A stretch of 64,000 nucleotides of DNA from Massalongia carnosa (GCA_965645245.1 OZ287086.1:682001-746000), one strand, 5' to 3'; shown: positions 11,601 through 44,556, counted from the stretch's first letter. The notes: generated from the letters alone by a model not told the origin. Numbers and translations are program-made.

Positions 11601-12629
11601 ATCCAATCAATAAACGCCGATAAATCGCGAATGTTACTCTATACCGATAGATCAAAAACCGAGTTTTCAACTTCCGCTGTCACATTTGCACCAATTATGC
11701 GAAATTGGAACAATTTCACCGATAACTTCAATCGTTTTATCGAAAAAGATTGTCTCCTCAAACATCATACGATTTCGAAAAGCTGGAAATTAAACAAACA
11801 GTCAAGCGTTAAAAACGCTGAACTCTATGCGATACTACAAGTAATAAAATGGGCATACAAATTGACAATTGCGAATATTCTCTTCAATTTGGAAAAAACG
11901 ATTTGGATTTTTTCCGATAGCATAAACGCGATAAACGAAATTCAGAACTTGACAAATCATACTTACGCAAAACAAATTCGAAAATTCTCGAAATGCTTAT
12001 TCGGAAACAATTATCAGGTGGTTCTACAATGGATTCCTAGTCATTCGAAAATCGTCGAAAATGAAATTGCAGATAAAGCAGCAAAAGCGGGACATAGTCG
12101 AATCCTAGTCGAGTCTTCGATAATAACATTTGATTATGTAAAGGGTCAAATAAATCGAAATATGTTAGCCACATGGGAGAATCAATGGCAACAATGCAAG
12201 TCAAAAGGCAAATACTATGATAAATTCGAAATGCAGCCGGGCAAATCGAGTTTTTATTATCTGTCGAATAATTGTTCGAAATTAATATTTGCGACTATTA
12301 TGCAAATGAAATTCGGACACGGTTATTTTCGATCATATCTGCACCGATTGAAAGATTATAATTCGTCAAAATGCACAGGGCGCTGCAACGAACGTCAAAC
12401 GCCAGAACACTTATTGATGAATTGCATACATTATTCAAATGAAATCCTAAACATGAAACAAAATATCGATACCACAATTACTTTAAAAATGTTGTTTAAT
12501 ACTAGGATCGGAAATAATATTTTGATTAAATTTATTGTTGATAACAAAATCGCGACTAGAAAATGGATGCTAGGTCAGCTCGATGACGAAAATATCGAAA
12601 CGGGAGGTTGGGGAGAGATCGAACAGTAA
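8616..12629 (+). CDS. LINE ORF2: AP endonuclease, reverse transcriptase, RNase H, C-terminal Cys/His motif (1337 aa)
   Basis: APE motifs QEPW, GDFNAH, SDH; RT motifs GIPQGSPISP and FIDD; RNase H motifs YTD, AELYAI, SDS, WIPSH; CTGRC...EHLLMNC. Confidence 0.95.
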   Translation: MAGQHSLTNIENTQNVKFIQHNCAKSTNAMISCLEYAVLNRVDIVLFQEPWTRDQKTISHPSFTCIMPKIATYRPRVAIFVTKCNPKLQCTPRTDLINDTDLQIIEITIDEVRKVQIFNLYNEKSLNDRETYTIDRLLVKYQPISTDQFVICGDFNAHHSWWNSKIQNAIRSENLVKWLKLNKCSLINTPDLYTFFAHSGNSSSIIDLTFANSKIENAITNWSIDENAVTGSDHEVIRFELIASFKNLTSHATALSNKYNCNKADWDKFAKFLDENAVNYESQIQSLLNNYQFDESALYLQNVIKNAAEMFIPKTKICAKSKNWWSQDLSGLRKIMCRHRREWKNNPSYFSHQTFRHSRIEYFHAIRKAKQQTWLAFLENAANKDVFTAYKYTKPRMFEKIPPIQYENKLNVQFDHKCDAFVSAMYTKNPFTDDNIEDLTNQDSENDNNWPNLTENELQNAISLFNPKKSCGPDAINFTIIQKSFQPLKNVFFTIYSKLIQIGYHPLCWRTGLGAVLKKPNKPDYSLLKSYRIITLLNCLGKIAEKIVANRLAYLGENSSLLDTEQMGGRKNHSAIDAVMNVVHDIEIANRNKNVLSCLLLDVKGAFDFVSINQLLNVMKKLHLSRIVIQWVKHFMTKRSINLIFDEHKSKTYYIESGIPQGSPISPILFLIYIRYLFPKIRMKFNAHSPSFIDDVAIYVENKTAIQNCKEIEIIVKTAFDWAATNNVKFDDDKSELIHFEKSRNASKEKVQLPNGTILEPKNSVKWLGVWLDRKLNYKKHVETRIASANRSLFAIQNLMKSEWGLKPTACRQLYLSCIIPISDYGSEIWYKGQKKYEKLFQNLQNRMIRKILGTFKTTPVQAMEIESHILPAKLRLLMKNQKYAIRLLKIAENNPICQRIPSIYSVKFENIGFDTILWNNRYAEWNEDEKKSSKPHPSQLIRILHSVSDIVHKTDEFESVNNFIKPWKPSCKIKFQIERSKETAKSSYYSTLSKIQSINADKSRMLLYTDRSKTEFSTSAVTFAPIMRNWNNFTDNFNRFIEKDCLLKHHTISKSWKLNKQSSVKNAELYAILQVIKWAYKLTIANILFNLEKTIWIFSDSINAINEIQNLTNHTYAKQIRKFSKCLFGNNYQVVLQWIPSHSKIVENEIADKAAKAGHSRILVESSIITFDYVKGQINRNMLATWENQWQQCKSKGKYYDKFEMQPGKSSFYYLSNNCSKLIFATIMQMKFGHGYFRSYLHRLKDYNSSKCTGRCNERQTPEHLLMNCIHYSNEILNMKQNIDTTITLKMLFNTRIGNNILIKFIVDNKIATRKWMLGQLDDENIETGGWGEIEQ

Positions 12630-13442
12630 AATTAGAAATGATTTATGCTGGAATATTTACGAGCTTTACAAAAACAAATTGTAAAATCGATATTTCGATT
12701 ACTAAAGGTTGTTACTAACACGGAGTAAAAACGGGGCAATATTGACGATAGATAGTTTGGTTATAAAGGGTTGATTTATTTGTAAAATAAAACCATATCT
12801 TAAAATAGTTTAGTGTCATAACCTTAGGTTGAATACACTTAATGAATAAATAAAAAAAAAACCTCGCTTAGAAGGGGGTGACCAGTAATAGGAAAAGATT
12901 GCTGCCTAGCAACTCTTCATCCTTAACATCACGGTCATACATACCTTTATTATTACATAGCCATATAGCCATAGTCATATACCATAGTCATATACCTATT
13001 TCAATAGTGGGTGTGGACGGTGCGGACGAAAATTCTCGCGTTTGTTCCATAGCCTCCGTGGATTCTACGGTTAGGGGGGTGCTCCCAATTATCGCTACCG
13101 AAGATGGCGCGGGCGAATCGGTTGGGGTGTGGCCCGGGGGCGTAGTCGGGGGGACCCATAGATGTTTCGGAGGGAGGTCTGGGGGTGGAGTTGATGGTAT
13201 CAATCGATTTGGTCTATGACACATCGGGTTGAACCTTCGATTGAGCATAGTGTTTTTTGTCTTTGCAATATCCCTTTTATCGCCACCAAATAATTTATTA
13301 TGACTTTCCCCGGACGTACTAGTCAGAATAGAATTTACACCTGTTTACTGGTCAAATGACTCTTTCTTTCCTATCCCTATTTATTTGACTATAACGCGTC
13401 AAATAAATCCTAATCGGGTTAAAATAGACCGCTCCTCGCTAA

Positions 13443-14240
13443 GGCTAAGAATGATAAAATAGAGTTGACATCTCTTTCGTGAAGTCTCTATCCCAGTTTT
13501 CGTTCATCTCACTAGTGCGTTTTACGGCCCAATACTATTGATGAATTCTACGATTGGGGTGAACGACGTCCCTTTCGCCCAGGTCAAACCCAGTTTACTT
13601 CTTAAGCATATATCAATAGCGAGTCTAGCCGTAGCCCATGCGCCGGCGAACCGACGGGGTCTCGTTACGAGCGAGATAGACATTCACTGCTCTATATACA
13701 CCGACATGCGCATACTGTCCTCTCGGGCTATGCAGAGGGTCTCCGTACGGTGGCCGCCATTGCATACCACGCCTCACGGGTTTTTTATGCCTACTTCGCG
13801 TTATTCATAAAGGTCTCCCGTTTATGAACCGACCATGTCTCGCAGGGATTTCGACCACTATGCTCCTGACCAGGCAGTATAGTATCGATTTTCCGTCCCT
13901 ACTATCCATACGGGTCGAGGACAACTCGGAGGGGTGCTCGTTTGAAATTCGTCTGTTAGCTCAGGGCCTAGACTGTTATCAATTAACGGGTTCCTCGTAT
14001 ATTGCCCTCTTCTTCTCCCAAGGGTGTCCTATTTGATGACTAGGTTGCCTCCACCATCCCCGGTACGACTCCGGTTTGGGCCGTAGTGCTCACGGTAGCC
14101 ATCAATCGGATGGTTTTTATAACCCAAATCCCTTGTATCGTGTAGGGTGTGACCCTACACTATGTGTCTATATGTTTTATTTCTTTCAGCCGGAGGGCTC
14201 CGTGTTGTAGACGAAGGAGACCCATGTGATAGACATAGCT
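13443..14240. repeat. ~800-bp non-coding dispersed repeat, copy 1
   Basis: Colinear with 32250-33047 from GGCTAAGAAT to GATAGACATAGCT; no recognisable protein domain. Confidence 0.85.
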
Positions 14241-17200
14241 TGGATTCGGAGGTAGCACTGCACAGTAGTTTTTGAGTCCGATCCAACAATCTTCCAACCT
14301 AACGAACAATCCATCCTTCTTCCCTTCTTCATCTTCGATCAACACGTATAAACCTAGCTCCGCTCTACTCCCTTCCATAAACAGAATGCCTACTACCTGC
14401 CGCCCTGCGTCCACCGCCGACGATAGCGGCCCCACTGGCCCCCTCACCCCCCTTGTTCCTGACTCTCAGCCGACCTCCGCAACAATGCAGGCCGGCCAGC
14501 CAGCGGAAGAAGGGCCCACACGCCCCGGTACCCCTGATGAGCTACTTGAACTTCGCGTACAACGCGACATTTTGGTACGAGAGGGGCGCAGGCCGAAATG
14601 AGAAAGCTTAGGAAGGAAATTGTCGACAGACAGGCCGCGTTGGAGGTGGAGGAGGCCCCTACGGGATTTCAGCATGGGGGATCCCAACAGACAAATCAGG
14701 CCATTCAGAGCGAAGGTACGGATGACCCAAGAATCCTCCCTCTGACAAGTGACTTTCCGGCCATAAACCAGCTGTATTTCAGGCAAATTTTGGAAAATAA
14801 GTTTGACCCCATCAATATCGCCAAGATGTGCAGTGATGTTACTCTGAGCAAGTCTACGAAGAAATCTATCAATATCAGCAAAGGTCTGGAGGTCATTACT
14901 GGCGAGGATGACGCATCGTTGAGCGACATCAAGGGTATCACCCACCTAATTCGTTGTCTTTTGGTATACTGGCAAGCGGTATTGCACTTTGCACAACCAA
15001 GTCTGTTCAAAGATCTAGCAAGGGCCTTCATGAAATACGAGGACCGGCTGATTTTGCCTCACAATACCTACACATGGGAGTCGTTGCTGCAAGTTCATAT
15101 GCTATTTCATAGAACGCTGTGGTATCAAGGAGTGGACGACCCCGTAAAATGGAGGCAAAGCTACCCAGACTTGGAAAACACATACCTGGTTAAACGCGAC
15201 AGGCCCCTCAACAACCTTCAAACCCGGACCGGATTTGGGGGATACACAACCAATTCAAACAGCATTACTCCAAGGCCCTACCCTTGCCATCGGTATAACA
15301 CAGGCAAGGACTGCCGAGACTGCAGATACCAACACGTCTGCAGCAACTGCGGGAGACAGCACCCAGCACTTAGTTGCAGGGGCAACAACCCCAACAATAG
15401 CAACCCAAGTAGCCAATCTCGTAACAATCCGAATTGGACACCGGTCAATAGGAAGGATTGACTAGCCGGCCCATATGACCATATCGCGGAAGGTTTTCCG
15501 TACAGACTGATGGACAAACTCGAGGCTCTTCAGCAAGGACCACTCATCCTCGCCGGCTGGAAGAAGCACCTAGAAACTCACCCCGATAACGTGTACAAGC
15601 AGGCTATTTTTGATATTATTCGGTATGGGGCCAAGATTGGGTATACCGGCCCAGAACAATTCATCCTCAGCCCCAATCTGCTATCAGCAAAAGAAGCTCC
15701 TGATATACTCACTAAAGATGTCGAGGAGCAGAGGGATAAGGGACGATTGACGCGAGTAGATATTCTTCCCTCCAAGTTCATATCATCCCCATTAGGTCTC
15801 GTACCCAAATCAAATGGTACATGGCGCCGTATCCATCATTTATCTCATCCTGAAGGATCATCGGTAAATGACTTCATCCCTCAGGAATGGGGGGCCTTGT
15901 AATACCCCACATTCGATGACGCTGTCGCCAAAATAAGAAAACAAGGAAAAATGTGCATATTAGTAAAAAGGGATTTCTCCGATGCCTTTCGCCATATACC
16001 CGTGGCTAAAAGCGACTGGTGGTTGCTGGGATTTCAATGGGATAATGTTTACTGGATGGAGCGCTTTCTACCTTTCGGCTTGCGCACCTCTCCTTTTCTA
16101 TTCGATTTGTTCGCAAAGGGGATAAATTGGATGTGTTTACAAAATCAACATGATGTGCTTCATTATCTAGATGATTTCTTGGCAGTTTGCCGCACTAATC
16201 CCGAAGCGGAAGCTTTCACTCGGTACTTCTTCGATCTTTGCAAAGACCTTAAAAGAAAAATAAAACTGGTCATGTGATCGATTTCTTAGGCATCGAATTG
16301 GATACTGTGCTCATGGAAGCACGGCTACCACCAGACAAACTGCAGAAAGCCAAAGACCTCGTCAAACAGGCCTTGCAAAAATCATCGATTAGAAGGGAGG
16401 AATTAGACTCCTTGGTGGGATTTTTGTCATTCGCAGCTAAAGTGGTAGTGCCAGGGAGAGCTTTCCTCCGACGTCTTTTTAACGCAAAAGCCATGTCTCG
16501 TGGGCGTCATATTCATATTAACGAGAATTTCAAAGCCGACCTGCAGTGGTGGCATCTTTTTTTACCTAAATGGAATGGCGTTCGCATGTTAGACCGTCCT
16601 CGCGAGACATTTCGTCTTTGGACGGACGCATCAGGGTACGGCATTGGGGCCTACATCCTAGTGGAGGATCATACCAGTTTTACCATGCCCGCTGAGCATG
16701 CACTTTCTGAACGTTTCAGGTCTCGGCTTAGGCCAACTCACATCAATGTCAAAGAAATGACAGCGATATTACACGCTTTGCGTAAATGGCTCCCCCTTTG
16801 TGCAGGGAGCCATGTGATTTTCCACTGTGACAACTTTGCTGTCACGTCAGGAATAAGGAAATCATCTATTCGTGGAAACGCTATGCGGCCCCTTCGGGCA
16901 ATCGCAATGCTGACCGCTATTCATGATATTCGGATTGAAATACGTTGGATCCCAACAAAGTCAAATGAGCTCGCTGACCTCCTATCACGGGGCAAACTGG
17001 AGAAAATCGGTAACAAATGGCCCAATTTACAGGAACCTCTACTCAAATCCTAGCACGCGACCCTCCCGAAAGCTGGTATAGCGAAATACCTCTATCCCGA
17101 CCAGCAGCTAGATACCTGTGGTGGGGCTTGGCAGTCAAAACCCGCAGTCTGTATGACACAGGGAGAAGAAGCTATGTAACACACTGCAGAATATCAATGA

Positions 17201-18230
17201 ACGCGACTCCATTTCCGGCAACCATACAGACCTTGTCATCTTGGATAGCGATGCTAGGAGAACACAAAATACAGCCCAAAACCATTAAGGCCTATCTAGC
17301 CGGAGTTCGGTCTAGCCAAATCGACACGGGCTTTGAGGATCTAGAAACGTTTCACCATCCCGTACTAAATAGAATCATTGCAGGCATAAAGCGAAAGAAT
17401 GGCGAAGCCGACAAGAAAGAGCGAATGCCCATTACGAAAAACATACTCCTTCGTTTAGTGAAACGATTGGACTTAGCCGACAACGCGCAGGCCACTCTAC
17501 ACGCAGCATACTGTCTGGCATTCGCAGGATTTCTTCGCGCAGGCAAATTTACGTACACTATCAGAGACCTAACAGACCCAAGCTTCGAATCATGGCATTT
17601 AACTAGGAAATCCGTCCACTTAGAGGTAGATAAGCAGTTCCTCTCCTTGCCGGCGTCCAAAACCGACCCCTTTCGTCGAGGCATTACGCTAACGATAGCC
17701 GCATCAGGGGACGAGGCCTGCGCTGTAAAATCCCTTCGTAATTTGATCACCCGGTTTCCACTACCTGCAACCTCCCCTTTATTCTATAAACAAAAGGCTT
17801 TCACACGCGAATATTTGACCACCGCGATGCGATCAGGCCTTAAGAGATTAGGCATAATAGGTAATTATTCAGGTCACTCTTTCCGAAGAGGTGCAGCGAC
17901 GTCGGCCAAGGAAGCCGGTCTTAGCGGGAACGACATTCAATTACTAGGCCGGTGGAAGTCAGACTCCTACAAGCTTTATATCCAAACGCATCAATCCCAC
18001 ATCTTAGCCACACGCCGTTTTCAACACCCTCCCTCAGCCTCCTAAACAGCATCGCCGCGCGAGCCGTTTCCATCTTGGGCTTGGGAGTATCCACCGCGAT
18101 CTGCACCAAGGCCCGAAAGGGGGCGCTAGGTAGAGGCGCCGGCGAGAGTGACGGCGCCAGCGAGGTGCAGATCGCTGTGTTTCCGCCAACCTTAGAAATA
18201 GAAGCAATACGAGGTCACATGAACTAGACA
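14241..18230 (+). mobile_element. DIRS/Ngaro-type tyrosine-recombinase retrotransposon, degenerate; boundaries approximate
   Basis: Gag-like ORF with Cys/His finger (14385-15461), RT (LPFGLRTSP, HYLDDF; 15510-16277), DIRS-type RNase H (WTDASG, HINVKE, CDN, ADLLSR; 16274-17053) and an overlapping YR ORF. Confidence 0.9.
17017..18045 (+). CDS. Tyrosine recombinase of the DIRS/Ngaro element
   Basis: FAGFLR, SKTD, GHSFRRGAAT and GRWKSDSYKLY carry the R-K-H-R-W-Y catalytic residues. Confidence 0.92.
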   Translation: MAQFTGTSTQILARDPPESWYSEIPLSRPAARYLWWGLAVKTRSLYDTGRRSYVTHCRISMNATPFPATIQTLSSWIAMLGEHKIQPKTIKAYLAGVRSSQIDTGFEDLETFHHPVLNRIIAGIKRKNGEADKKERMPITKNILLRLVKRLDLADNAQATLHAAYCLAFAGFLRAGKFTYTIRDLTDPSFESWHLTRKSVHLEVDKQFLSLPASKTDPFRRGITLTIAASGDEACAVKSLRNLITRFPLPATSPLFYKQKAFTREYLTTAMRSGLKRLGIIGNYSGHSFRRGAATSAKEAGLSGNDIQLLGRWKSDSYKLYIQTHQSHILATRRFQHPPSAS

Positions 18231-18933
18231 ATATTTATCAAGGCTCATGAAATCCTTTTCGCGGAAAAGTCCCTGAAAGAGTTGAATGTGACTATCGCGC
18301 GATTAATAAGTGAAGCTCTTCTCAATAATTACATTGCCGAATTACTCTCAAGTTTAAGAAACAAGAAAATTTAACTGCGATTGTCAATATAGCTGAAATT
18401 TTAGAATAGAAGCGGTGAGACAATCAGATCCTTCAAGGTCAATCTCTCGACTTTTCTTTCAAGAACCTAGAAACGCCGAGATAGAGCTTAAAGTGACTGC
18501 AGAAGAAAGTCAATCGAGAGTTGCCTTTCAACGGCTTCTTGAAAATGAGACCTCGCTCAATAAGGCTCCTGCGGCTGCAGACAAAGTGAAGGCCGGAATG
18601 AAGATGCGCCAGAAAGCGTTATCGAAGACGAGAAAGAAAAGAACAAGGATGAATCGAATTGAAAGAACTCGGTCTCAAATAGTACTGAGATCTCGGGAAG
18701 CGACAAGGACCTCTTCAAACGAGTGAATCCAAGACCAACTCTGATATCAAGAAGCTCATGTCTTACGGTCCTAATGAATCAGAGTCAATACATCTAAACT
18801 TTAAGCCTCAGAGGCCAAAGTTCTAAGGATAACTCTTGGAATTATTTTGACTGTGAATCAAGAGATCATCATTAGGTAGGCTGGTAACCCGTGCCTAATC
18901 TTTCATTCGGCCTGAGACCTAGCAAGTTTTGCT

Positions 18934-19212
18934 GTGAGAAGTTCACGGTCACGTATCCCGACGGACTCATCATCGGGCTTCGAGCTCCCCAACTGTGATC
19001 CGGTGTTTGTCAATCTCAAAAATCCAGTGCTAAAAAGCTTAGCCTTGCGAATAATACATCCAGATCCGGTGAAACGCATTTCCATCAAAGATGCGCTCAC
19101 AGATCGTTGGTTTAAGCAGATCGATAGCTGTAGCCTCAGACTTACGGGCCGGAGACAACCCGAGCCATTGATGCCATCAACTTGGGAAGCTGTCGGCTCG
19201 CGGCATAGATGA
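18934..19212 (+). pseudogene. C-terminal fragment of a Ser/Thr protein kinase
   Basis: LRIIHPDPVKRISIKDALTDRWFKQIDSC resembles kinase subdomain XI; the rest of the domain is not seen. Confidence 0.6.
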
Positions 19213-19959
19213 GTATCAAGAAATCTCACCATCATCTGCTACAGAAGTAGAGTTGAATCCCTCAGCATCAGTTTGACATGGGACACAGATGATCATAGAC
19301 AATTACATCTTTAGCACGCATGGAGAAGGGACCGGTCGTTGCATTTGCTGCTACAGCGCGGTTTGAGCAAAAACCGGGGTGATTGAAGGGATTTGGCGTT
19401 TTCGTTGGATCTGTATGTTACATGAACAGTTGACGGCATAATGCTGAAATCACTAAGAAGGTGACTGCTTATAGCAGTCATGACAGCCTGCAGGGCTGAG
19501 CTAGAACTATTGGGACTAAGCCTGTATAACCCAAGGTCCCGCGTCAGCAGCTTGTGCCTGAAAAGCTCACGTCAGTAGGGTTGCTTCCTCAAAGCTCACC
19601 TTTGAAAGTTCCATTCTCTCGACCTCATTCTCCCCAGAATTATCGCTCCTTCAGGAAGTATTAATGCCAACATCTCATCGCCTTTCAAGACACAATTCTA
19701 GCATGACGACCCAACACTAAGTTTGGTCATCCCACTCTCCATGTCCACCTTGAAGCAGAAGCTAACAGCATCACTCAGTCGAGCACGGCATCAAGATCGA
19801 ACCGGCGCCGCGTTGCCGAAGGCAGATCGTCATATTCAGCTTCAACTCCCTGCGCCATCAAATCAGCAATGATTCCTTCTCTTCAAATGAGTCAGCTCAG
19901 CGCAACAATCCGCTTACCGTACCAAATATCTCTTTCGCCTCGTACATGTCCAGTTTAAA

Positions 19960-20260
19960 CCCTCGCTCGAGATGCACCTGAGACTGCCAACAAGGACTTC
20001 CTTATATCTCTCATAGAATCTCTGAACAGCGACATCTTCAACCTGCCGAAGGATGTGAAGGGAGTTTCGCAGGAATTCTTAAATGTGCTGGAGCGGATAC
20101 CGAAGAAGAGCCCAAAACCAGATAACGCGTGTCCCATATGCACCGAGAAGTTCTTGAACGATCTATACCCCCTTATGGTCGAGCTGCAGTGCCATCAAAA
20201 CCACAAGTTCAGTGCGTGGGACCTTGGCTGCAGCTGAAAGGAACCTGCCCGATATGCTGA
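19960..20260 (+). pseudogene. RING-H2 zinc-finger protein remnant
   Basis: KGVSQEFLNVLERIPKK...CPICTEKFLNDLYPLMVELQCHQNHKF, followed by a frameshift or deletion before a TCPIC-like end. Confidence 0.65.
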
Positions 20261-20657: not shown

Positions 20658-21029
20658 TCATTCCCCCTCATTCTTCGTCGTGCCCTTCATAGTCGGACCG
20701 CCCTTATCACCCAGCGGAACGGACTTCTTCAGGTTAGCACCGCTCACAGCCAGCGGGTTACCTTCGTTCTTATTGCCCGCAGCTTCTTTCTCCTCCTCAG
20801 GGCGTGTATTGGACGGTTCAAACGCTGCGTCCGTCTCGGCGGCGCCTTGATCCGTACCGAACTTGCTACCCTCGGTCGACTTGGGCTTCAGCGAGTTTCG
20901 GTCTTGGTCATCCTTGTAGGGCATCCGCAGCAGCGATGAACTGTGGTAGTTAGCGGCGAGCTAGCGCGGCGCAAAGGCGCGGGCTCGTGGTGCCTAGAGC
21001 GCGGCGCGGAGGGAGCAGAAGGAGGACAT
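20658..21029 (-). pseudogene. Small hydrophilic fungal hypothetical protein, probably pseudogenised
   Basis: ORF 20658-20924 (QDRNSLKPKSTEGSK...AAFEPSNTRPE...NPLAVSGAN). An upstream ATG at 21029 is followed by an in-frame TAG. Confidence 0.45.
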
Positions 21030-21313
21030 GTTTGTGTTTGTAGGTGGTGTAGGTATGTGGTATGTGGTTCAGTATTTTCGTATGGCTATGTGATTGCTTT
21101 ATGCAAGATTTCAGAGGAGTGGCAGAAGATCCATTGCTTGAGATTTCGTGAAGTTGTTGAGTGAGAAAGCAAGCTGAAGTCTATTTCGCAATGGAAATCA
21201 TTTAGAAGACTGAGGCCAGGATGATCGTTGAAAGATCCTGACCATCACTTTTCATCTGTATCGATTACGCAGATATCAGTTATCATCTTCTCCGAAATTC
21301 ATCACAAAGCTGT

Positions 21314-22141
21314 TCACCTTTTCTTGAATTTCTCGTCCGTGCACTCCTTGTACATAGCATACTGTTCAAAGAAGCAAGCTACTTCCACAAACTCTCTTGA
21401 TTCTGAACGATCCCGTGCTTTCAGGAATTTCTGAAAGGCCTCGTTAACGCTGATGAGCTTTGCCGAACGCTCTTCAAGATCCTTTATATCCTGCTTATGC
21501 GTGGTGCTTATCCAGCCCAATATCTGTAAAGCTCTGCTTCCCCATTTTGCTTTTGACGATCCTTCAAAGGGCGTTCCAAGGAAGACGACTCCAATCGTTC
21601 TCTCCACGAGGTTAGTGCTAGCCATGTCGGTACCATTGTGCCTTGACAACGCATTGGCGCAAACGAGACCCCATAGACTGTGCGAGACGAAAATAATCGG
21701 ACGTTCAGCCTGGACATAGACATCCTATTAACGTATTTCCGGTGGAAAGACAAGGGGGTGCGCCAATTCCTACAGTTTTCGTTTTCTCGCGAAGACCGAT
21801 TAGGCTCTGCAACATTGCACTCGCGTGATCATCAATAGCTAAATGCTCCGGGATGAATTTCGGCCCAACAAACGGATAGAAGTGAGCAAAGTCCGTGTTG
21901 TAACCAAAAGAAAGGATGCGAGTTGTTGGGCAGGCTTGAGGTAAGAGATCTAGCGGCCACAACAGCGATCTATCGCGACCCTCCCATGTCCAGGTTTTCA
22001 CTCTATCACCGCCGAGCCCGTGGACGAAGACAATGCTGTATGGTCAGTACCAAGCAACTCGGACGAGACATCTGGTGCGTACTCTATATTCGCGTCTGGA
22101 GAATCAAAGAGGGGGTCGCCTAATCCGTACGGTTCGGCCAT
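21314..22141 (-). pseudogene. SesB-like (lipase-type alpha/beta hydrolase) gene, apparently 3'-truncated
   Basis: Spliced reading: MAEPYG...D-IVFVHGLGG, WPLDLLP...RILSFGYN, RPIIFVSHSLWG (nucleophile elbow, normally HSLGG), VFLGTPFEGS, ACFFE. The C-terminal catalytic-His segment is not seen. Confidence 0.8.
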
Positions 22142-22438
22142 GCTGGCGTTGTCATCGCAACACAGAGGAGTCGTACCCTTGTACTTCAAACTTAGCACTA
22201 TAACTGATGCGAGATAATTGTACACCGCAGTACCGCCTGCATGGATAGACCAGGCGCTTGAGCACGTGCATAGCCTTGGCTCTATCAGCCAGTCATCTAT
22301 CCCGTGCCCGCATGATGGCGGGGGCCTTCCATCGGCGAGTCCGTGCCTGTATTTATATAGATGAACCGTGCTTTTGGAAAGTCTTAGGCGTCGAGTTTCT
22401 GACCGAGCCTAGGTGCGGTCCCGAGGACGGTAAAGATA

Positions 22439-23776
22439 CAGTACTAGGTCAAAAGTTTCCGACAGCCCCACCATCAACTTTTTACCCCCCCCACTGCTTT
22501 GAATTATCAACTATCAAGTTGTTATTTTGATGTCTTGAAACTTCGTACGATGATTACATACATTATAGCAAGCACATTGGGCTGAGAAATATATTTGTAA
22601 TATTTCGTATACCATCCTTTTGACTGGATGCAAGCTTCAATCCTCCTTTCCATGCTGTCTACTAAACTCTTCAGCATTTCCTCATCTATGAAGGCCCATG
22701 CTTCTTCCAAAGCTTTCCAAAGTACCTCGCGGACCCTATCATCACCACCAGTCACCGAGTCGATGTCCGGATTGACCTGGTAGACGAGCTTTTTGAGCAC
22801 GTACCAAACGTGCTCGATGGGATTCAAATCAGGAGAATAAGGGGGCCAATCGATGACTGTTATGCCGTTTTCATCGAACCATTTCTTCACCTTTTTGGCA
22901 GTGTGAATGGGGGCATTATCCTGCATGAAAATGAGACCTGGTTCCCAAATTCCAAGCAGATTATCGTTCAATAATTCCAAATATGAATTCGCGGAGTACC
23001 CCATCTTCTTTGCCTCGAAATCACGGGCCAATTTGTAGATATCCGACCTTCCCCCCCCCAAAAAGCCCCCCATACCATGACCTTGACCTCTTTACCTTTG
23101 CCGTACGGTTGTATCATAGGTTTTTTCCATTTTTCGTCCGGAAATCTGAACACCCATTGACGCTGTTTGCCCGACCCCTTTTCCACCGAGCACTCGTCTG
23201 ACCATATTATTTTTGACCACTGCTCAAAAGTCCACTCACGCCGAAGCAAGCACCAGTCCAGTCTCTTCTTTGCCACCTCGGGCATCAATAAAGGCCGCTT
23301 TTTAGCCAGCCAGTTTGTTAGACCATAGTCTTTGAGCGTCCGATAGAGAGTGGATCGACTACATTGCACCCCAACCTCCGTACGCAGCTGCGCGTAGGTG
23401 ATGCGTGGATTGATTCGTGCAAGTTTGATGATACGTCTTCGGTCGCGGTCCGAGAATATTCCAGGCCGACCCGATCGCGATTTGGACTTTTCGTTGTTGC
23501 GTTCTGAGTGCTTTTGAAGAGTGTAAATGACGGTGGTTCGAGGCACATTTAATGTCTTTGCAATTTCGGCCGATGCATGCCCCAAAGCCTGGGCTCCAAT
23601 AATCATACCTCTTTGACATTGATTCAATTCGATATTACGAAGCTTATTACCAGAAATTGAAGTCAACGGAGTGCGTGGCATGGTGAAATGATGAGGTCAA
23701 AGTTGATGGGTTGGTAGGTTAAAACGCGAAATCACGAAAATCTCGGGTAGTGTCGGAAACTTTTGACACGGGACTG
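22439..23776 (-). mobile_element. Tc1/mariner (DD34E) DNA transposon with a frameshifted transposase (22522-23681)
   Basis: TA duplication at 22437-22438 and 23777-23778; TIRs CAGTACTAGGTCAAAAGTTTCCGACA and TGTCGGAAACTTTTGACACGGGACTG; WSDE, QDNA and SPDLNPIEH motifs; frameshift in a G/C run near 23055. Confidence 0.95.
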
Positions 23777-23839
23777 TAGGGTTTCAGTCTTATTCAATAC
23801 ATCCCTGAGCTCTAATGTCTACAATCTTCCGACGCAGCA

Positions 23840-26800
23840 ATGGCCGGTAACACGCCAGCAGTCTCTACAGGCGCGAAGGATTTTGGCACGATTTCTGGCA
23901 ACCAAGGCGCTGTGATCGGTGACGTCTCAGGCTATGCGAACGTGATTGGTTTGCGTCCTGTTCACATTGATATTGATCTTATGCTAAATCCTGATTAGGT
24001 TCTCAGACAAACAATATTGTTCAATGTCCAGGCAAGTCGCCATTCGCAATGATATAGCGTCCTGTGAGCCGAGGCTGATAGCATTTTGCGTTTGTAGAAA
24101 GACCCGATACCCCACCAAGCTCATCATCTGCTGTTCCTTTCCGCCGCGACCATGATTTCGTCGATCGCGGAACGCTACTTGATCAGATCCACGAAAAGTG
24201 CTCGGCGCCAGCATCAAGGGTAGCGCTTGTCGGCCTAGGCGGCGTTGGGTAAGCCAAAGGGCCTCAGGCTAGTTCTAATAGCTTACTTTCGCAAAGAAAG
24301 TCGCAGCTTGCCATCGAGTACTGCTATAGAATCAGAGAGCAGTTGCCGACGACGTGGGTGTTCTGGATACATGCTAGTAATGCAGCCCGTATCGAGCAAG
24401 GTTATCGGGATGTTGCAGAGCAAGTCAAGATTCCTGGCAGGGAGGATCCAAAGGCGGACATATTCCGGCTAGTTGACAAGTGGTTACGCGACGAGAAGAA
24501 CGGAAAGTGGGCTCTAGTCCTCGATAATGCCGACGAAGCTACTGTGCTTTTCGAAACTCATGCTACAGGCCAGAAGGCGCAGGATGGAGGCATTAGAAGC
24601 GGGCTCACGCAATCACTGTTAGCATATCTACCTCAGAGTCGAAACGGCTCGATTCTCATCACCTCCCGGACTAAAAGCGTGGCATTGCGGCTAGCAGAAG
24701 AAAGCGACATAATACCGGTTGAGCCGATGGACGATACACATGCGCTAGCGCTCCTTGAAAAGAAGCTGGGAGAACAGATGAACAGAGATGATACTGCTGA
24801 GCTAGCAGCAGCACTCGAATTCATGCCGCTTGCCATCATTCAAGCGGCCGCATACATTCGACAAAGAGTACCAAGATATTCTGTTCGACAGTACATAAAA
24901 GAGTTCTATAAAAACGATAAAAGAAAGACCAGTCTGTTGAATCACGAAGCGGGACATCTTCGCAGGGACCTGGAGGCTAAAAATTCAATCATTATAACCT
25001 GGCAAATATCGTTTGATCATATTCATCAGATCAAGCCTTCGGCAGCTAATCTGCTGTCGCTTATGAGCTTTTTCGATCGACAGGGAATTCCTGAGGCTTT
25101 ACTCAAGACACAAAACGAGGCAGGAAATGAAAATACGGGAGAAAATGCTGGAAATGACGAAGATGATGACCACGAAGACGATAGCGATAAGGATACCGTA
25201 TCCGATTCCAGCGTCGACGAGTTTGAAGACGATATACTTGTCTTGAGAAACTTCTCGTTCATCACCATCAGCATGGATGAAACCACCTTTGAGATGCACG
25301 GGCTAGTGCAGCTAGCGATCAGAAAGTGGCTAGAAGCATCCAATCAGCTCGAAAGATGGAAGCAGCAGTACATCAAGAATCTCAGTACAGTATTTCCGAC
25401 GGGAAATTACGAGAATTGGACAAAGTGTCAAGCGCTTTTTCCTCACGCAAAGTCGGCAGTAGCGCAGGAGCCAGCTGTCGAAAGCTCATTACAAGATTGG
25501 GCCTTGATACTATATCACGCTGCATGGTATGCGTGGGCGAAAGGGAGTTACGCTGAAGCAGCGACAATGGCCCTAAAAGCAACAAGAACCAGGCAAAAAG
25601 TGCTTGGTCCAGAGGATGAAGAGACATTGAATAGTATGGCTATGCTAGCATCGGCATACACGGGACAAGGACGATGGACGAAGGCCGAAGAGCTGCAGGT
25701 GCAAGTGATGGAGACGAGTGCGAGGGTGCTAGGGGCGGAGCATCCTTCCACGCTGACTAGCATGGCCAATCTTGCATTGACGCATTGGAATCAAGGACGA
25801 TGGACGGAGGCCGAAGAGCTGCAGGTGCAAGTGATGGAGGCGAGTGCGAGGGTGCTAGGGGCGGAGCATCCTTCCACGCTGACTTGCATGGCCAATCTTG
25901 CGTTAACGTATTGGAATCAAGGACGATGGACGGAGGCCGAAGAGCTGCAGGTGCAAGTGATGGAGCCGAGTGCGAGGGTGCTAGGGGCGGAGCATCCTTC
26001 CACGCTGATTAGCATGGCCAATCTTGCGTCGACGTACAGGAATCAAGGACGATGGACAGAGGCCGAAGAGCTGGAGGTGCAAGTGATGGAGACGAGAAAG
26101 AGGGTGCTAGGGGCGGAGCATCCAGACACGCTGAATAGCATGGCCAATCTTACGTTGACGTACAGGAATCAAGGACGATGGACGGAGGCCGTAGAGCTGC
26201 AGGTGCAAGTGATGGAGATGAGTGCGAGGGTGCTAGGGGCGGAGCATCCTTCCACGCTGACTAGCATGGCCAATCTTGCGTCGACGTACAGGAATCAAGG
26301 ACGATGGACAGAGGCCGAAGAGCTGGAGGTGCAAGTGATGGAGACGAGAAAGAGGGTGCTAGGGGCGGAGCATCCAGACACGCTGACTAGCATGGCCAAT
26401 CTTGCGTTGACGTATTCGAATCAAGGACGATGGACGGAGGCCGAAAAGCTGCAGGTGCAAGTGATGGAGACGAGTGTGAGGGTGCTAGGGGCGGAGCATC
26501 CTTCCACGCTGATTAGCATGAACAATCTTGCGTCGACGTATTCGAATCAAGGACGATGGACGGAGGTCGAAGAGCTGCAGGTGCAAGTGATGGAGACGAG
26601 TGCGAGGGTGCTAGGGGCGGAGCATCCTTCCACGCAGACTAGCATGAACAATCTTGCGTTGACGCATTGGAATCAAGGACGATGGACAGAGGCCGAAGAG
26701 CTGCAGGTGCAAGTGATGACGACGAGAAAGAGGGTGCTAGGGGCGGAGCATCCAGACACGCTAACTATCATGGCCAATCTTGCGTCGACGTATTCGAATC

Positions 26801-28458
26801 AAGGACGATGGACGGAGGCCGAAGAGCTGCAGGTGCAAGTGATGGAGACGAGTGCGAGGGTGCTAGGGGCGGAGCATCCTTCCACGCTGACTAGCATAGC
26901 CAATCTTGCGTCGACGTACAGGAATCAAGGACGATGGACGGAGGCCGAAAAGCTGCAGGTGCAAGTGATGGAGACGAGTGCGAGGGTGCTAGGGGCGGAG
27001 CATCCTTCCACGCTGACTAGCATGGCCAATCTTGCGTCGACGTACAGGAATCAAGGACGATGGACGGAGGCCGAAGAGCTGGAGGTGCAAGAGGTGGAGA
27101 CGAGTGCGAGGGTGCTAGGGGCGGAGCATCCTTCCACGCTGACTAGCATGGCCAATCTTGCGTCGACGTACACGAATCAAGGACGATGGACGGAGGCCGT
27201 AGAGCTGCAGGTGCAAGTGATGGAGATGAGTGCGAGGGTGCTAGGGGCGGAGCATCCTTCCACGCTGATTAGCATGGCCAATCTTGCGTCGACGTACAGG
27301 AATCAAGGACGATGGACGGAGGCCGAAGAGCTGCAGGTGCAAGTGATGGAGACGAGTGCGAGGGTGCTAGGGGCGGAGCATCCTTCCACGCTGACTAGCA
27401 TGGCCAATCTTGCGTCGACGTACAGGAATCAAGGACGATGGACAGAGGCCGAAGAGCTGGAGGTGCAAGTGATGGAGACGAGAAAGAGGGTGCTAGGGGC
27501 GGAGCATCCAGACACGCTGGCTAGCATGGCCAATCTTGCGTTGACGTATTGGAATCAAGGACGATGGACGGAGGCCGAAAAGCTGCAGGTGCAAGTGATG
27601 GAGACGAGTGTGAGGGTGCTAGGGGCGGAGCATCCTTCCACGCTGATTAGCATGAACAATCTTGCGTCGACGTATTCGAATCAAGGACGATGGACGGAGG
27701 CCGAAGAGCTGCAGGTGCAAGTGATGGAGACGAGTGCGAGGGTGCTAGGGGCGGAGCATCCTTCCACGCAGACTAGCATGAACAATCTTGCGTCGACGTA
27801 CAGGAATCAAGGACGATGGACAGAGGCCGAAGAGCTGGAGGTGCAAGTGATGGAGACGAGAAAGAGGGTGCTAGGGGCGAAGCATCCAGACACGCTGACT
27901 AGCATGGCCAATCTTGCGTTGACGTATTGGAATCAAGGACGATGGACGGAGGCCGAAGAGCTGCAGGTGCAAGTGATGGAGACGAGTGTGAGGGTGCTAG
28001 GGGCGGAGCATCATTTCACGCTGATTAGCATGAACAATCTTGCGTCGACGTACACGAATCAAGGACGATGGACGGAGGCCGAAGAACTGCAGGTGCAAGT
28101 GATGGAGACGAGTGCGAGGGTGCTAGGGGCGGAGCATCCTTCCACGCAGACTAGCATGAACAATCTTGCGTCGACGTACAGGAATCAAGGACGATGGACG
28201 GAGGCCGAAGAGCTGCAGGTGCAAGTGATGACGACGAGAAAGAGGGTGCTAGGGGCGGAGCATCCAGACACGCTGACTAGCATGAGCAACCTTGCATTCA
28301 CGTGGAAGTTTCAAGGCCGCAATGATGAGGCTCTCTCACTGCTAAAGGAATGTTTTCAGCTACGAAGACACAAATTGGGTCCTCAACATCCTGATACAGA
28401 GTCTTTGCTTGAGCTTCTCAATGGTTGGCAGATGGAGAGTTTATCATTAGAGTCTTAA
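23840..28458 (+). CDS. Fungal NLR: short N-terminal amyloid-like motif, NB-ARC domain, TPR array; predicted join(23840..23948,23999..24031,24098..24248,24297..28458)
   Basis: Splicing restores ERPDTPP...VPFRRDHDFVDR...P-loop GLGGVGKSQLA in frame with the 1371-aa ORF; Walker B LVLDNAD; LPQSRNGSILITSR; MPLAI; MHGLVQ; 42-aa TPRs. Intron 2 is GC-AG. Confidence 0.92.
25640..28290 (+). repeat. Array of 21 near-identical 126-bp (42-aa) TPR units
   Basis: GGACGATGG (GRW) recurs every 126 bp from 25669 to 28189. Confidence 0.95.
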
Positions 28459-28466: not shown

Positions 28467-28499
<33 letters not shown>

Positions 28500-31400
28500 A
28501 TTCTTATTCCGATGTGGTACCGGCCGAAGGCCGACCCATGCGGGCGAGTCTATCTAGTTTTATAGTACATGGAAAACCTTTTGAGGAAGAAAAACCATGC
28601 AATCCTGTGTCCGGCCGAGGACCCTCCAGGTCCCAGCCGTGTGCTCCATGAAAAAATTTTTGACCTAAGACAAGTATGAAAAATGAAACAAAGCATGCCT
28701 ACTGATAGCAGTATAGACGCTATGCTGTCAGCGAAAATTGTGACAAAAAACCTGTCTTCATTAGCCACATTGTGACTAATTTCATTGCTTTAGATGACTT
28801 AGTGATTAATCGATAGTTGTTTGTGCCTATCGTATTTAGCAGAGTTTTTCTGTTGTCGTTGAGTTTGCAAAACATGATCACATGTTTTGCAGTCTGTTTG
28901 CGCCAGCCGCATGAGCATTTCGGGGACGAGACGTCTGGGACTCGGAGTCTATGTAGGAAGGTAGCTAGGCCTATCTTTTCTGAGCGTATCTGAATGGCTA
29001 GCGCGCTCTCCGCTTTGGCTAGAGTTTCGTGCAATTTGATGCGTTTTTGGAGAGTGTACCTGATTGTGCCGGGGTGGGAACGGGTGTGCGTTCCTGATAT
29101 GATCTCCACGAGGCCTGCCATGCAACTGTTTGTCGTTTTTTTATTTGAGCAGTTTTTTTGTTATGAGCGGCGCGTGCCTCCCCTATTTCTCGGGCGAGAT
29201 TCGGGGGGGATTCGGCCCATGGTGGATTTGGTGTCGGTGTTGGAGGGTTATATGCCTCCGATGTGATTCTCTTGGCCCAGGAGTATTTCAGCGTTCATGG
29301 AGTGATGACTGGGGCCCTCTTGCGTCCTGCCCGACCTCGAAGTTATTGGCTATTTTGTTGCATGCATTTGTTATGAAACTCTTTTGGCCATTTCGACACA
29401 GGCGTTGTCTGGTCTGGGCCTGTAGTTGATCTAAATGTATGTCAATTGAGGCTATAAATGTCTCTGCTTCTAGTGCAGCCATAGGCCTTGCTTTGAAGGC
29501 TCAGGCTAAGTTTCTTTGACATTTGTTTTGTATGACAGCCAGTTTGTTTGAGATGATGTTTGATTTTTGAATTTCTTTTGGTATGTGCCAAATGGTAGAG
29601 CCGTACGTCATGGCCGGCCGGACTACGGCGGTGTAAACTTGGCGTGCCTTTAGAAGAGTGGCGCCCCATGTTGAGGTGGATATTTTTGTCAATGCCCTGG
29701 ATTGTTTTGTCATTTATTCCTGGATATTCCTTGTGTGAACACCCTATTTCAATTTTGAATCGATTTGAAGTCTAGAATTCTGATTTCTGTCTTTGGTTTT
29801 ATTTTGTTATTTCCTATTTGAATAACAGTGAACATGTTGAATTTCTTCGGATTTCTTGACAGATGTATCAATTCGTATTTCTTCGGAGCAAAGACTGAAC
29901 CATGTCGACTTGCCCATTTTTCACATTTTTTGTGAATTACCTCTAGCGTCTTGCAATTTTCTTCGGTGCTTTTTCCGTATGCTAGCATATTGATGTCAAA
30001 TACGAAGGCTAGAGCACTCGTGTTGCTGCCTGGTCTTTCACATATGTCTAGTAGGTCTGCATTGTAGAACAGATAAAGAATAGGAGAAATAGGGGAGCCT
30101 TGTGGGATTCCGGTTTTTACATCGAATATGCCCGTGACTCGGCTGTGAATCGCCAGGGTAGTGCTTCTTTTATTCAGAAAACTGTTCCTCCAGTCAGTAA
30201 TCCACATTGGGATTTTCCTTTTGCGAATATTGTGAATCAGTCTTCGATTTGTCACTGTGTCATAGGCTCCTGCTACGTATATGCTCAATAATGTTGCTAC
30301 TTTGTCTGTGCCTTAGCCCAACACTCTTTGAATTTGTTTAGTCAACAATTCTATTGCAGATTCGGTTGATCTTCCTCGTCTGGCGCCGATCTAGGTGTCG
30401 GGCAGGAGTCGGTAGGTTTCCGCTAGATGGTTTATTTTTTGTAATATGATAGATTCCAATACTTTTCCAAGCGTTTTTAGGAGGGCTATGGGTCGATAGG
30501 CGTTCGGGGCCGAATAGTCATCCTTGCCTCTTTTCTTGAGCGTGATTGTGTTGGCTGTTTTAAATGCACGAGGATGATATGCTTGATCTACACATGCTTG
30601 AAAGAGTAGGGTCAGTAATTCGATTAGCTTTTCCGAGCATGCCTTTACAATTCTGTTGGCAATTCTGTTCGGACCCGAGGCCGTATCGGGCTTGAGTCGG
30701 CGTATGGCTTCTATCACCACTAGTTTGGTTATGATCATTGGACATTGTGGCGGGCTGGGGTAAAATAAACCCTCTATGTCGCTGAGGTCGGCCGGAGGAA
30801 CGGGTGTATAAATTTTCTGTTTTAGCATGTCCGATTTCTCCTCGAACGTCTCTGCTACATAGTCGTCTCGAACGAGATTGGGCATTTTGGGAATTTCTCT
30901 TGTCTGGTCACTTTTGTCTTTCACCCATTTGGCTAGTCGCATGAGACCAGTCGGCGATTCAGTGGCTTTTTCTATTTCCTTGCGGAACGACAGTCTTTTA
31001 GCCTTTTGAATGATTTTTTGATTTCTGTAATTGGATTTTGGGTATGTTATCCAATCAGAAATGTCTCTGAAATTTGACCAGATACGTCTGAGCCTACGAG
31101 TTTCTTTCGTGATCACACTGCATTCATTATTCCAAAAGGGTTTGGCGTACTTACTGGGTCTAGCCCAAGGTACAGAGGTTTCTATCACTTCTTGAAGTAT
31201 ATTCTGAATTGACACGGTGTAAGCATCGATTTCGGCGGGGTATCGGGGGGTCTTCGGGAGGAGCGCCCTCTTTTCCGCTTCTCTCAATTTTCTGATATTC
31301 GTCAGTTTCCAGGCCCTGCGTTCTCTGATTGTTTGAACCTTACTGTTCAGCGCAATTCGGGTGGAGGTCGGAATGTGATCGGACGACTGATTGAGTTCCG

Positions 31401-32250
31401 GTCTTAACATGCAATGTTCAAGTCTATCCGTTAATTCTTCTGACACGAATACAAGATCGATTGTGCTAGACGATTGTCAAGCCTCCCATATAATGGTGCC
31501 CTTTGGAAGTGTTAGTGATATATTTGCCTCTTCAATTATGTTCGGTAATTGTTCGGACTCCGCATGTTAAGTAGGCCTCGACGAATGATTCCACAATGGA
31601 TGATGTAGGTTGAAGCCGCCCAGTAAAATGTGTTGTCACTGCAATTAATTGGCGTTTCACTGTTGCTAGAGTAGACGGACATTCTATAGAAGAGTAGGAA
31701 ATGGGAGAGGGATTATAAACATTGTGGATATGGATCACCTTTGATGTGTTTCCAGTTTTCATTCGAACTTTTAAGGTGCATATGTCGGCCGACGGATACT
31801 CTGCTTCCCAGCTATCAGGGTCAATAGTATCATTTATATAGAAACACACTCTGGTATCTCTATTTGGGCGAAATAATAAATGAAACCCACTTGGATGTGA
31901 GCTTAAGTTGGTAGGAATAGATGGATTGCGCCAGGGTTCCTGAATTGCGATAATGTCATAGTCTTGAGTGTTCGGATCGGCTAAGAGGGGTAAAATTGTA
32001 CTCATTCTGTCATTTCTGATATTGTACTACAATATCGAGAGAGATTTCGTGTCCATTATAGGACGTCTATTGATTCGGCCTGGGAGATCGAGGGGTCGTT
32101 GGTGGTGCTGTGTGCTCTGATTATCGCCGGGGCAGTAGATACAGCTCGGGGTCTGAGTGGAGGTCTACCTACAACTGGTTTTGTATAGGCCTTTGTCATA
32201 TTTTCTGGATTCATGATGCCCGTGTCAGCCCAGGATATTCCCGTTCGTGG
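28466..32250 (-). mobile_element. Degenerate Tad-like LINE (end of ORF1, ORF2 APE-RT, (CAT)n tail)
   Basis: Fragmented ORFs homologous to 51521-54895 (DIIAIQEPW, GIPQGSPISP, QIRSEKIGL, CSCG...KHV); (ATG)n tract at 28468-28497. Confidence 0.92.
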
Positions 32251-43793: not shown

Positions 43794-44556
43794 TTGCTGT
43801 CATGATTGTTGTCGCTATTATTGTCATTAGAGTCATTATCATTCTCTTTATCAACTTCATCTTCGTTGTGACCAGATTGAGAGACAGAAGACTGAATAGC
43901 ATTGCTACCTGAATGGCTGGAGTGGTTCGATATTGCACAGGTATGAGGGATCATTTTAGTGAGTTTCCCTGAGATCTAATGTCAGTTTTTCTTTGTCTTA
44001 GCTCTTATACATTTAATTATTACATCTCCCAGTTTTATTGGACAAGCTCGCTCTGATTCGAAAGTCACAATGATCGCACTTAACTAGATATCGATTCTTC
44101 TCGGCCTCCTCAACACGCTATGACTCGCCCTTGCTTGCGAGCCAATTAGTGATCGCCTGCCTTGTCTTATATTTATCGTCCCACTCTTGGCCGATATAAA
44201 GTGACATTGTTGATGATTCGGCTGAAGGATGATTCGGCCAAAGCGAGATTGAACGAGACATAAGTATGCAGAAAAGATGGACGAAGATATGCACATATAA
44301 GTCCAGAGTTAATGCTAGATAGCCCGAGTGCCACGTAGTTCAAATGCCTTGTTTAAGCATTCTATGGAATTTTAATGGCTTATAGCACTGAAAGCAGAAA
44401 GTTATAGAGCTGTAATTGGTAGGTTCAGTCACTCTACCAATGATTGACCTCCCGATATCGCACGATCATCAGGCTACAGATATCTACTCGCTCTTTTTTA
44501 TCGCCGTAATCGTGTCTTCTTTCGTGGAGTGGCAAGGCTTTTATCGGATAGCTGAT

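Follow-up and report, generated by a model that had tools for sequence, protein, structure and literature searches.

A probable decayed NLR-hydrolase module in Massalongia carnosa and its candidate terminal signalling motif

The DNA analysed in this study is a stretch of 64,000 nucleotides of Massalongia carnosa (GCA_965645245.1 OZ287086.1:682001-746000), hereafter the window, and all positions are counted from its first letter. A gene for a NOD-like receptor (NLR) on the plus strand and a truncated gene for a SesB-like alpha/beta-hydrolase on the minus strand lie head-to-head within it. An earlier note on this sequence had proposed that an NLR lacking an effector domain and the hydrolase form a two-component system communicating through a terminal motif, and both genes, the motif and their relatives were followed up by computation.

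The NLR gene was spliced by script on the plus strand as 23840-23948 / 23999-24031 / 24098-24248 / 24297-28458, which gave a single open frame of 4455 nt and 1484 aa. Exon 1 (23840..23948, 36 codons and one base) carries the start codon and most of an N-terminal motif, and exon 2 (23999..24031), of 33 nt or 11 codons, completes the motif. Exon 3 (24098..24248) encodes a proline/serine linker and the start of the P-loop (GLGGVG), and aligns with P0001, an annotated NB-ARC/TPR protein of Lobaria immixta (800 aa). Exon 4 (24297..28458) encodes the NB-ARC, DUF7779 and TPR domains, assigned with Pfam, and the stop codon. The GLGGVGKS P-loop is split across exons 3 and 4. Introns 1 and 3 are of the GT..AG type, whereas intron 2 (24032-24097) opens with GC (GCAAGT); functional GC-AG introns usually read G|GCAAGT at this site. 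The peptide encoded by the two tiny exons is exactly the 47-aa NLR N-terminus that the earlier note had put forward, and both exons recur in P0001 and in the NLR of L001, a metagenome contig of 2984 bp.

Exon 4 was matched strongly by TPR_10 (22 stretches), TPR_12 and DUF7779; NB-ARC scored 17.1 bits in exon 4 alone (cut-off 23.5) and 33.4 bits in P0001. With a P-loop NTPase followed by TPR repeats, the product is a fungal NB-ARC/TPR NLR of the STAND (signal transduction ATPases with numerous domains) class. The TPR array (25666..28295, plus strand) comprises 20.9 copies of a 126-bp (42-aa) unit with 91% matches (Tandem Repeats Finder). Its near-identical tandem units are of the highly internally conserved repeat type of fungal NLRs, of which only about 7 are present in the relative from Lobaria immixta. 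Starting 9 bp past the stop codon is a perfect (ATG)x10.7 microsatellite (28467-28498). No Pfam domain was found in the 47-aa N-terminus preceding the linker, in agreement with the claim that no folded effector domain stands there; the NLR thus has a short N-terminal extension in place of an effector domain, a feature among the criteria of Daskalov (2012).

A word-based search with the 60-aa frame that surrounds exon 1 returned one protein, P0001. It is 92% identical to the window N-terminus over 37 aa, the likeness running on through exon 2 and the linker, and 72% identical in the nucleotide-binding domain (NBD), so that the N-terminal peptide is better conserved than the ATPase domain. In L001 the NLR exon 1 is 65% identical to that of the window and is followed by a 49-nt intron 1 with a conserved branch site and a 30-nt exon 2; both introns have GT donors, that of intron 2 being GTAAGT where the window has GCAAGT. 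Differences between the window and L001 exon 1 fall at codon positions 1/2/3 in the proportion 10/7/19, and this concentration at third positions points to coding constraint on the exon. A pseudo-repeat described in the earlier note (phi-S-G...V-I-G, twice; phi, hydrophobic residue) is present and kept in all three NLRs (window, P0001 and L001). The 5' exon structure is therefore well supported, by conservation instead of transcripts. N-myristoylation of the NLR N-terminus was considered and dropped, as the peptide begins M-A-G instead of M-G.

The hydrolase gene (21314..22141, minus strand) consists of exons 22141-22083, 22035-21774 and 21709-21314 and encodes 238 aa; its ATG at 22141 bears out the head-to-head arrangement that had been claimed. 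Residues 1-228 are identical at 203/228 positions to the closest full-length relative, P0002 (344 aa). Past residue 228 ten unrelated residues precede a stop, and P0002 runs 116 residues further. The breakpoint of homology was placed at 21346..21347 (tblastn end at 21347), and no remnant of residues 229-344 was found by tblastn anywhere in the window. Contigs of runs X1, X2 and X3 leave the window at 21346-21351 and then read normal hydrolase sequence (hand translation), and the summed contig depth drops sharply left of 21340. The window copy reads S-H-S-L-W-G, with W in the place of G120 of the GxSxG elbow; G120 is invariant in 18 relatives (HSLGG), and the invariant H256 was lost with everything beyond residue 228. 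The truncation and the HSLWG reading noted earlier thus hold, and with tail, invariant His and elbow Gly all gone, this effector copy is, as judged from its sequence, dead. A 100-aa K/E/G/D-rich frame without a Pfam match (20658-20960, minus strand) lies just past the breakpoint and may be the original neighbour of an inserted or rearranged segment.

DUF676 matched the window hydrolase with 16.8 bits (E=0.005, below cut-off) and was above cut-off in P0018, P0023, P0026, P0027, P0052, P0071 and other relatives. The AlphaFold model of P0002 has an alpha/beta-hydrolase fold (predicted local distance difference test, pLDDT, 70), for which Foldseek returned a probability of 1.0 but template modelling (TM) scores of only 0.3-0.45 and generic matches. 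With the 136-aa frame 21314-21724 as query, 29 relatives were found in the protein collection, nearly all of them stand-alone proteins of 239-431 aa, with one NLR-length match; their sources are Dothideomycetes, Aspergillus nanangensis, Penicillium, Geoglossum, Xylariales, Hypocreales and further assemblies. By best local alignment, the window hydrolase is 74-81% identical to proteins of Dothideomycetes, Geoglossum and Aspergillus nanangensis (among P0002-P0013) and 93% identical to a protein of one further assembly. For an immune-type gene this is a high identity across classes, and its occurrence is patchy; the likeness could reflect horizontal transfer of the cassette.

A Tc1/mariner element (22439..23776, minus strand) is inserted between the two start codons. 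It has terminal inverted repeats, TA at 22437-38 and 23777-78, and a frameshifted transposase with HTH_Tnp_Tc3_2 and DDE_3 in two overlapping frames split near a C-run at about 23050, features that together place it in the Tc1/mariner group. The divergent promoter region is thereby divided into a left part (22142..22438, from the hydrolase ATG to the transposon) and a right part (23779..23839, from the transposon to the NLR ATG). Without the element the start codons are 358 bp apart by computation (the earlier note had given about 360 bp), and the L001 counterpart measures 283 bp in all. An empty-site joint of 22438 to 23779, with two extra letters GG, was present in contigs of 4/4 public runs (3 studies), and a second, diverged joint of 22435 to 23786 in one run. 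Given the empty site in all four runs the insertion is polymorphic, and being polymorphic it is probably recent. Over 21341-25400 the summed contig depth exceeded that of the left flank (21200-21340) by factors of tens to hundreds, and many contigs were only 90-99% alike. Contig depth is not copy number, and the pattern suggests that the sampled runs contain many copies of the module, paralogous or allelic.

The last 45 aa or so of full-length hydrolases of the family are conserved, with G303, G316 and G334 invariant in 18 aligned members and the consensus S-V-x-M-G-D-V-N-Y-x-x-K-I-x-N-N-x-G-V-V-M-G-H-A-Y-S-T-A-x-D-G-V-R-I-T-G-S-x-x-x-N-T-Y. Related motifs of about 40-45 aa stand at the start of the NLR and at the end of the intact hydrolase. 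Each comprises three short hydrophobic strands closed by glycine, those of the effector being V-x-M-G, G-V-V-M-G and V-R-I-T-G. Aligned by eye, I-S-G-N-Q-G-A-V-I-G of the window NLR corresponds to I-D-N-N-Q-G-V-V-M-G of P0002, and the end of exon 1 with exon 2 corresponds to ...I-T-G-S-S-T-T-N of P0002, the likeness spanning the exon 1/2 junction. The earlier note had seen no matching motif on the hydrolase; this is right for the window copy, whose tail is deleted, and the caveat is resolved at the level of the family, whose full-length members carry the motif. The effector-side motif is interrupted by an intron after G-S-S-T-S (about 1690-1760 in L001 and in many profile-search fragments). 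An intron common to the NLR-side and effector-side motifs was considered and dropped, the two lying four codons apart (the NLR intron earlier) and in different phases.

NLR N-termini and effector tails were compared by Smith-Waterman (SW) alignment, with 5000 composition-preserving shuffles of the N-terminus as the null. Against the P0002 tail, SW scores were 51 for the window (reached by 2/5000 shuffles), 52 for P0001 (0/5000) and 55 for the L001 NLR (0/5000). Against the L001 tail, the NLR of the same locus scored 62 (1/5000) and the window N-terminus 50 (11/5000). In a cross-table, the best tail match of the window and P0001 N-termini was P0002 (z 4.8 and 4.5), and tails with other motifs gave no match (z 1.6 or less). 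Homology of NLR and effector within one locus is absent from the window, where the hydrolase tail is deleted; it was seen in L001 (1/5000), and across loci between the window NLR and P0002 (2/5000).

Metagenome contigs were scanned with the hydrolase alignment, which gave 80 loci. L001 is an intact form of the module: an NB-ARC/TPR NLR without an effector domain is divergent from a stand-alone SesB-like hydrolase. The full-length hydrolase runs from 530 on the plus strand, with a tail scoring 89 bits with the motif hidden Markov model (HMM), and NLR exon 1 runs from 246 on the minus strand, so that the genes are head-to-head with 283 bp between start codons and both motifs present. In this pair the aligned motif is identical at 15/27 positions, a 4-residue gap being left out. 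The core S-H-N-C-G-V-V of the L001 NLR stands with E-H-N-R-G-V-V of its hydrolase, and G-N-Q-G-A-V of the window NLR with N-N-Q-G-V-V of P0002; such parallel variation within two pairs is an anecdote and not a test. The proposal of a two-component NLR-hydrolase system with a common terminal motif thus gains support at the level of the family and from this intact head-to-head pair.

At 16/80 loci the hydrolase domain immediately precedes NB-ARC in a single fusion, an 'all-in-one' alternative. The domain of the adjacent gene therefore also occurs as an NLR N-terminal effector, another feature among the criteria of Daskalov (2012), and adjacency is head-to-head in the window and in L001. A more distant hydrolase is head-to-head with an NB-ARC/TPR gene in L070 (6646-11005), where a different motif is matched: the tail ...F-Q-Q-G-T-G-N-A-G-R-D-F-Y-Q-G and the NLR start ...V-Q-Q-G-A-G-H-A-A-R-D-L-Y-N-G gave an SW score of 81 (0/5000 shuffles). 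The hydrolases of L009, L010 and P0028 end in still other G/N/Q-rich tails, and the wider hydrolase domain seems to be combined with several different terminal motifs.

To assess the reach of the motif, a profile built from 15 tails was run against 1.84 billion representatives; 48 proteins passed E<=0.001, and 18 of these also passed E<=1e-10. Of the 48, 34 were inspected and were nearly all hydrolase C-termini or short fragments, many reading into the intron after G-S-S-T-S. Several single matches are recorded here as side observations. P0072 carries a closely similar motif (residues 6-48) behind its start methionine and may be another NLR exon 1. P0076 is a fragment that joins the motif to a PNP_UDP_1-like part (ESM Atlas score 0.92, a lead only) and had no Pfam or PDB sequence match; a PNP_UDP version of the system may have its effector side in P0076 and its NLR side in P0072. 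P0068 (192 aa, predicted) runs on one strand from a degenerate hydrolase tail into an NLR linker (...R-P-D-T-P-P-S-P...F-R-R-D-S-D-F-V-D), a hint that some genome may contain the pair in tail-to-head or rearranged, possibly mutated, form. P0060, a 1617-aa repeat protein returned by the same search, looks unrelated and was set aside.

These observations (the gene structures, the motif common to the two sides, its specificity for the cognate hydrolase family and the head-to-head layout) make it rather probable that a two-gene fungal immune module has decayed at this locus, one in which an NLR and a hydrolase carry related terminal motifs and signalling would proceed through amyloid, by analogy with known systems. 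The motif itself is a candidate further family of fungal NLR/effector signalling motifs, set apart by consensus patterns and Pfam models. The mechanism was modelled on NWD2/HET-S, PNT1/HELLP/SBP and HET-eN/SesA/SesB. Ligand binding to the TPR array would lead to NLR oligomerisation via NB-ARC; the clustered N-terminal motifs would then adopt a cross-beta fold, which would template the same fold in the hydrolase tail, and the templated tail would switch on or relocate the hydrolase. Amyloid formation, templating and the outcome, whether cell death or defence, are taken over from these analogues. With its frame still open, the window NLR could at most signal to an intact copy of the hydrolase at another site in the genome.

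Several results weigh against this interpretation and are gathered here. With an effector-only HMM the window N-terminus scored a modest 7.4 bits (48/5000 shuffles); the corresponding values were 6.3 bits (90/5000) for P0001 and 15.8 bits (2/5000) for L001. Against distant members of the hydrolase family the window and P0001 N-termini gave weak or absent matches (z 0.3-1.6). No annotated NLR was returned by the tail-profile search at E<=0.001, a result to be expected if receptor copies lie in micro-exons and reach scores of 6-16 bits. When NLR-side copies were sought among proteins by word-based searches, P0001 only and then none were found, and the NLR-side instances number only three (window, P0001 and L001), with P0072 a possible fourth. 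The hydrolase family was not found in the annotated Lobaria immixta proteins. Motif-bearing hydrolases occur in 3 metagenome loci, L001, L002 and L006; no NLR lies within 10 kb upstream or 2.3 kb downstream of the one in L006, and the contig of L002 is too short to judge the presence of an NLR. The GC-donor intron 2 of the window may or may not be spliced, and contigs of 4 public runs are DNA-like, with the introns in place and no splice joints.

The alternative that survives best, although it is rather unlikely, is that the whole locus is dead, NLR included. The GC donor at intron 2, the Tc1 element between the start codons and the truncated, mutated hydrolase speak for it, as does the abundance of LINE, gypsy, DIRS-like, hAT-like and Tc1 elements in the window. 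Around the locus (window 1-20000 and 28700-64000) stretches a transposon island that includes a gypsy-like reverse transcriptase/RNase H/integrase (1-1797) and LINE-like elements (8601-12629, 28720-32026, 41772-43799 and 51512-54895). The island also contains a DIRS-like element, MULE-like and hAT-like pieces, and a second Tc1/mariner element (56304-57862). At 16253-18045 an RNase H frame precedes one that looks like a tyrosine recombinase (read by eye and without a Pfam match), and a SWIM frame and a DUF659 frame stand at 45450-46145 and 48788-49765. Against a dead receptor, the NLR frame stays open over all of its 4455 nt and through 21 near-identical TPR units; the intron 2 donor has the form usual in functional GC-AG introns, and the Tc1 insertion is polymorphic and so probably recent. 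No second copy of the NLR N-terminal motif was found in the window by tblastn, and no other candidate effector was found in its 64 kb.

It is unlikely that the motif is instead a divergent branch of a known family, be it a PP/RHIM-like one in which V mostly stands for the central Q, a HET-s-related one, or the second PNP_UDP-associated motif. Five fungal NLR-associated amyloid signalling motif families are listed in a 2025 paper (HRAM, sigma, PP, PUASM 1-2; PMC12261475), which also gives the Pfam models PF11558 and PF17108 (HET-s), PF17046 (PP) and PF17106 (sigma). None of these four models matched exon 1 (E<=10) or P0001 and 12 effectors or fragments (E<=1), a weak negative, as tails that resemble other motifs were likewise unmatched. 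Consensus patterns were taken from the consulted portions of PMC3321046 (PP, sigma), PMC9815663 (PUASM) and PMC4518210 (HRAM core) and run as regular expressions on 21 sequences, 18 tails and 3 N-termini. The HRAM pattern (21 aa; G19; hydrophobic at 5/8/10/16/18; R/K at 15), full and relaxed, was found in 0/21, as were the PP pattern FxGx(x)NxGLQLxGxNxGxL, strict and relaxed, each of the sigma sub-motifs GxGxQFNxx and GGTQNINT (three-fold repeats), and PUASM, FxGxGxQxxGxGxF, strict and relaxed. PUASM stands at the C-terminus of PNP_UDP proteins, and the effectors here are alpha/beta-hydrolases. The earlier statement that the motif cannot be assigned to HRAM, PP or sigma agrees with these results.

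What favours such a branch is that the PP core G-phi-Q-phi-G was found in 1/21 (P0026) and that a G-V-Q-phi-G-like core occurs in the distant members P0026, P0059, P0069 and L002; with Q in the middle of the central strand in these few, a remote PP/RHIM link is possible. P0076 joins the motif to its PNP_UDP_1-like part, a lead that is countered by the lack of a Pfam or PDB match. The comparison was made with published consensus patterns and with Pfam models, and the Pfam negatives are weak. In the supplementary tables of PMC9815663 that were searched, the motif strings occurred 0 times (outside files 8-10) and six effector accessions 0 times (outside files 8-9). The motif was not found in the literature surveyed, which included the consulted portions of PMC9815663, PMC3321046, PMC5485727, PMC4518210, PMC12261475, PMC12258605 and bioRxiv 2020.01.06.895854, and the literature search returned no description of such a module in lichen fungi.

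Of the known systems, the HET-eN/SesA/SesB sigma locus of Nectria haematococca (Daskalov 2012, PMC3321046), as described in the portion consulted, is like the present one in that a stand-alone SesB-type hydrolase adjoins a STAND/NLR without an effector domain, and a homologous extension of about 40 aa is found at the hydrolase C-terminus and the NLR N-terminus. The same source describes NB-ARC/TPR variants and the 'all-in-one' alternative, and reports that the NLR-side motif of het-eN was first missed because of an unnoticed 5' intron. Unlike in the sigma locus, the sigma sub-motifs are absent (0/21 sequences) and no SesA partner was seen; three glycine-capped hydrophobic strands are found instead. 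PNT1/HELLP/SBP (PP, RHIM-related) is like it in that SBP is a SesB-like lipase with a C-terminal motif common with the NLR, and unlike it in that most members here have V or I for the central Q and no HeLo-like partner is present. NWD2/HET-S (HRAM) offers the same logic of templating from NLR N-terminus to effector C-terminus and repeated strand-glycine units, although templating here is by analogy. In the portions consulted of PMC9815663 and PMC3321046, HRAMs are reported with HeLo, HeLo-like or PNP_UDP effectors and not with SesB-like hydrolases. PUASM and the second PNP_UDP-associated motif (Wojciechowski 2022, PMC9815663) are likewise recent families found by the pairing criterion, but in the consulted portion are reported only with PNP_UDP; the present motif might be identical to the second of them, the rare PF01048_015. 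All-in-one SesB-like/NB-ARC/TPR NLRs have the same hydrolase domain and NBD/TPR type, whereas two separate genes, linked only by the terminal motif, are found here.

A further alternative, considered quite unlikely, is that the motif is real but not amyloid, and is a conventional heterotypic docking or co-folding tag by which the activated NLR would recruit the hydrolase, for instance through beta-strand addition. AlphaFold puts short strands in the P0002 tail (residues 291-344, at a low pLDDT of 47-61), the Pfam amyloid-motif models and published consensus patterns are unmatched, and the computed results do not separate amyloid templating from ordinary binding. Amyloid signalling is favoured over a docking tag by features resembling those of validated amyloid systems in the portions of the literature consulted: the layout, with the motif at the NLR N-terminal end and the effector C-terminal end (Daskalov 2012; Wojciechowski 2022), a G/N/S and hydrophobic composition with glycine-capped strands, and a within-pair identity of about 48-56%, in the range reported for cross-seeding (bioRxiv 10.1101/2020.01.06.895854).

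That the likeness comes from composition only, the N-terminus being a disordered G/N/S-rich leader without a partner, is very improbable and was already disfavoured: short low-complexity peptides match easily, as the shuffled HMM scores attest (48/5000 for the window and 90/5000 for P0001), but for the closest pairs 4998-5000 of 5000 shuffles fell short of the pairwise score, the match shows specificity for the cognate tail and crosses the exon 1/2 junction, and the peptide, better conserved than the NBD, recurs in the independent L001 beside an intact hydrolase.

Beyond the decayed amyloid-type module favoured for this locus, a broader proposal is offered tentatively and is given somewhat less credence. 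An uncatalogued amyloid motif family, with three glycine-capped strands in about 40-45 aa, the core G-V-[VQ]-phi-G and perhaps a Q-less relationship to PP/RHIM, might couple NB-ARC/TPR receptors to SesB-like hydrolases and perhaps to PNP_UDP enzymes; the cassette, whose hydrolase is 74-81% identical among lichen-associated, dothideomycete, geoglossomycete and Aspergillus records, might move between distant classes of Pezizomycotina, and its receptor side might have been missed by surveys on account of the two tiny 5' exons.

Pairing of an NLR and an effector by a terminal motif is a known kind of system, and what is new, as a candidate, is the motif. If the interpretation is true, a family linked to SesB-like hydrolases would extend the range of sequences known among functional, signal-transducing amyloids and would provide a new pair for cross-seeding and structural work. 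Surveys of annotated proteins would then under-count receptor motifs hidden in micro-exons, a problem with a parallel in het-eN, as far as the consulted part of Daskalov (2012) describes it. The locus shows decay of the module, with effector truncation and transposon insertion beside a receptor frame that is still open, and it places such a module in a probable lichen-forming fungus.

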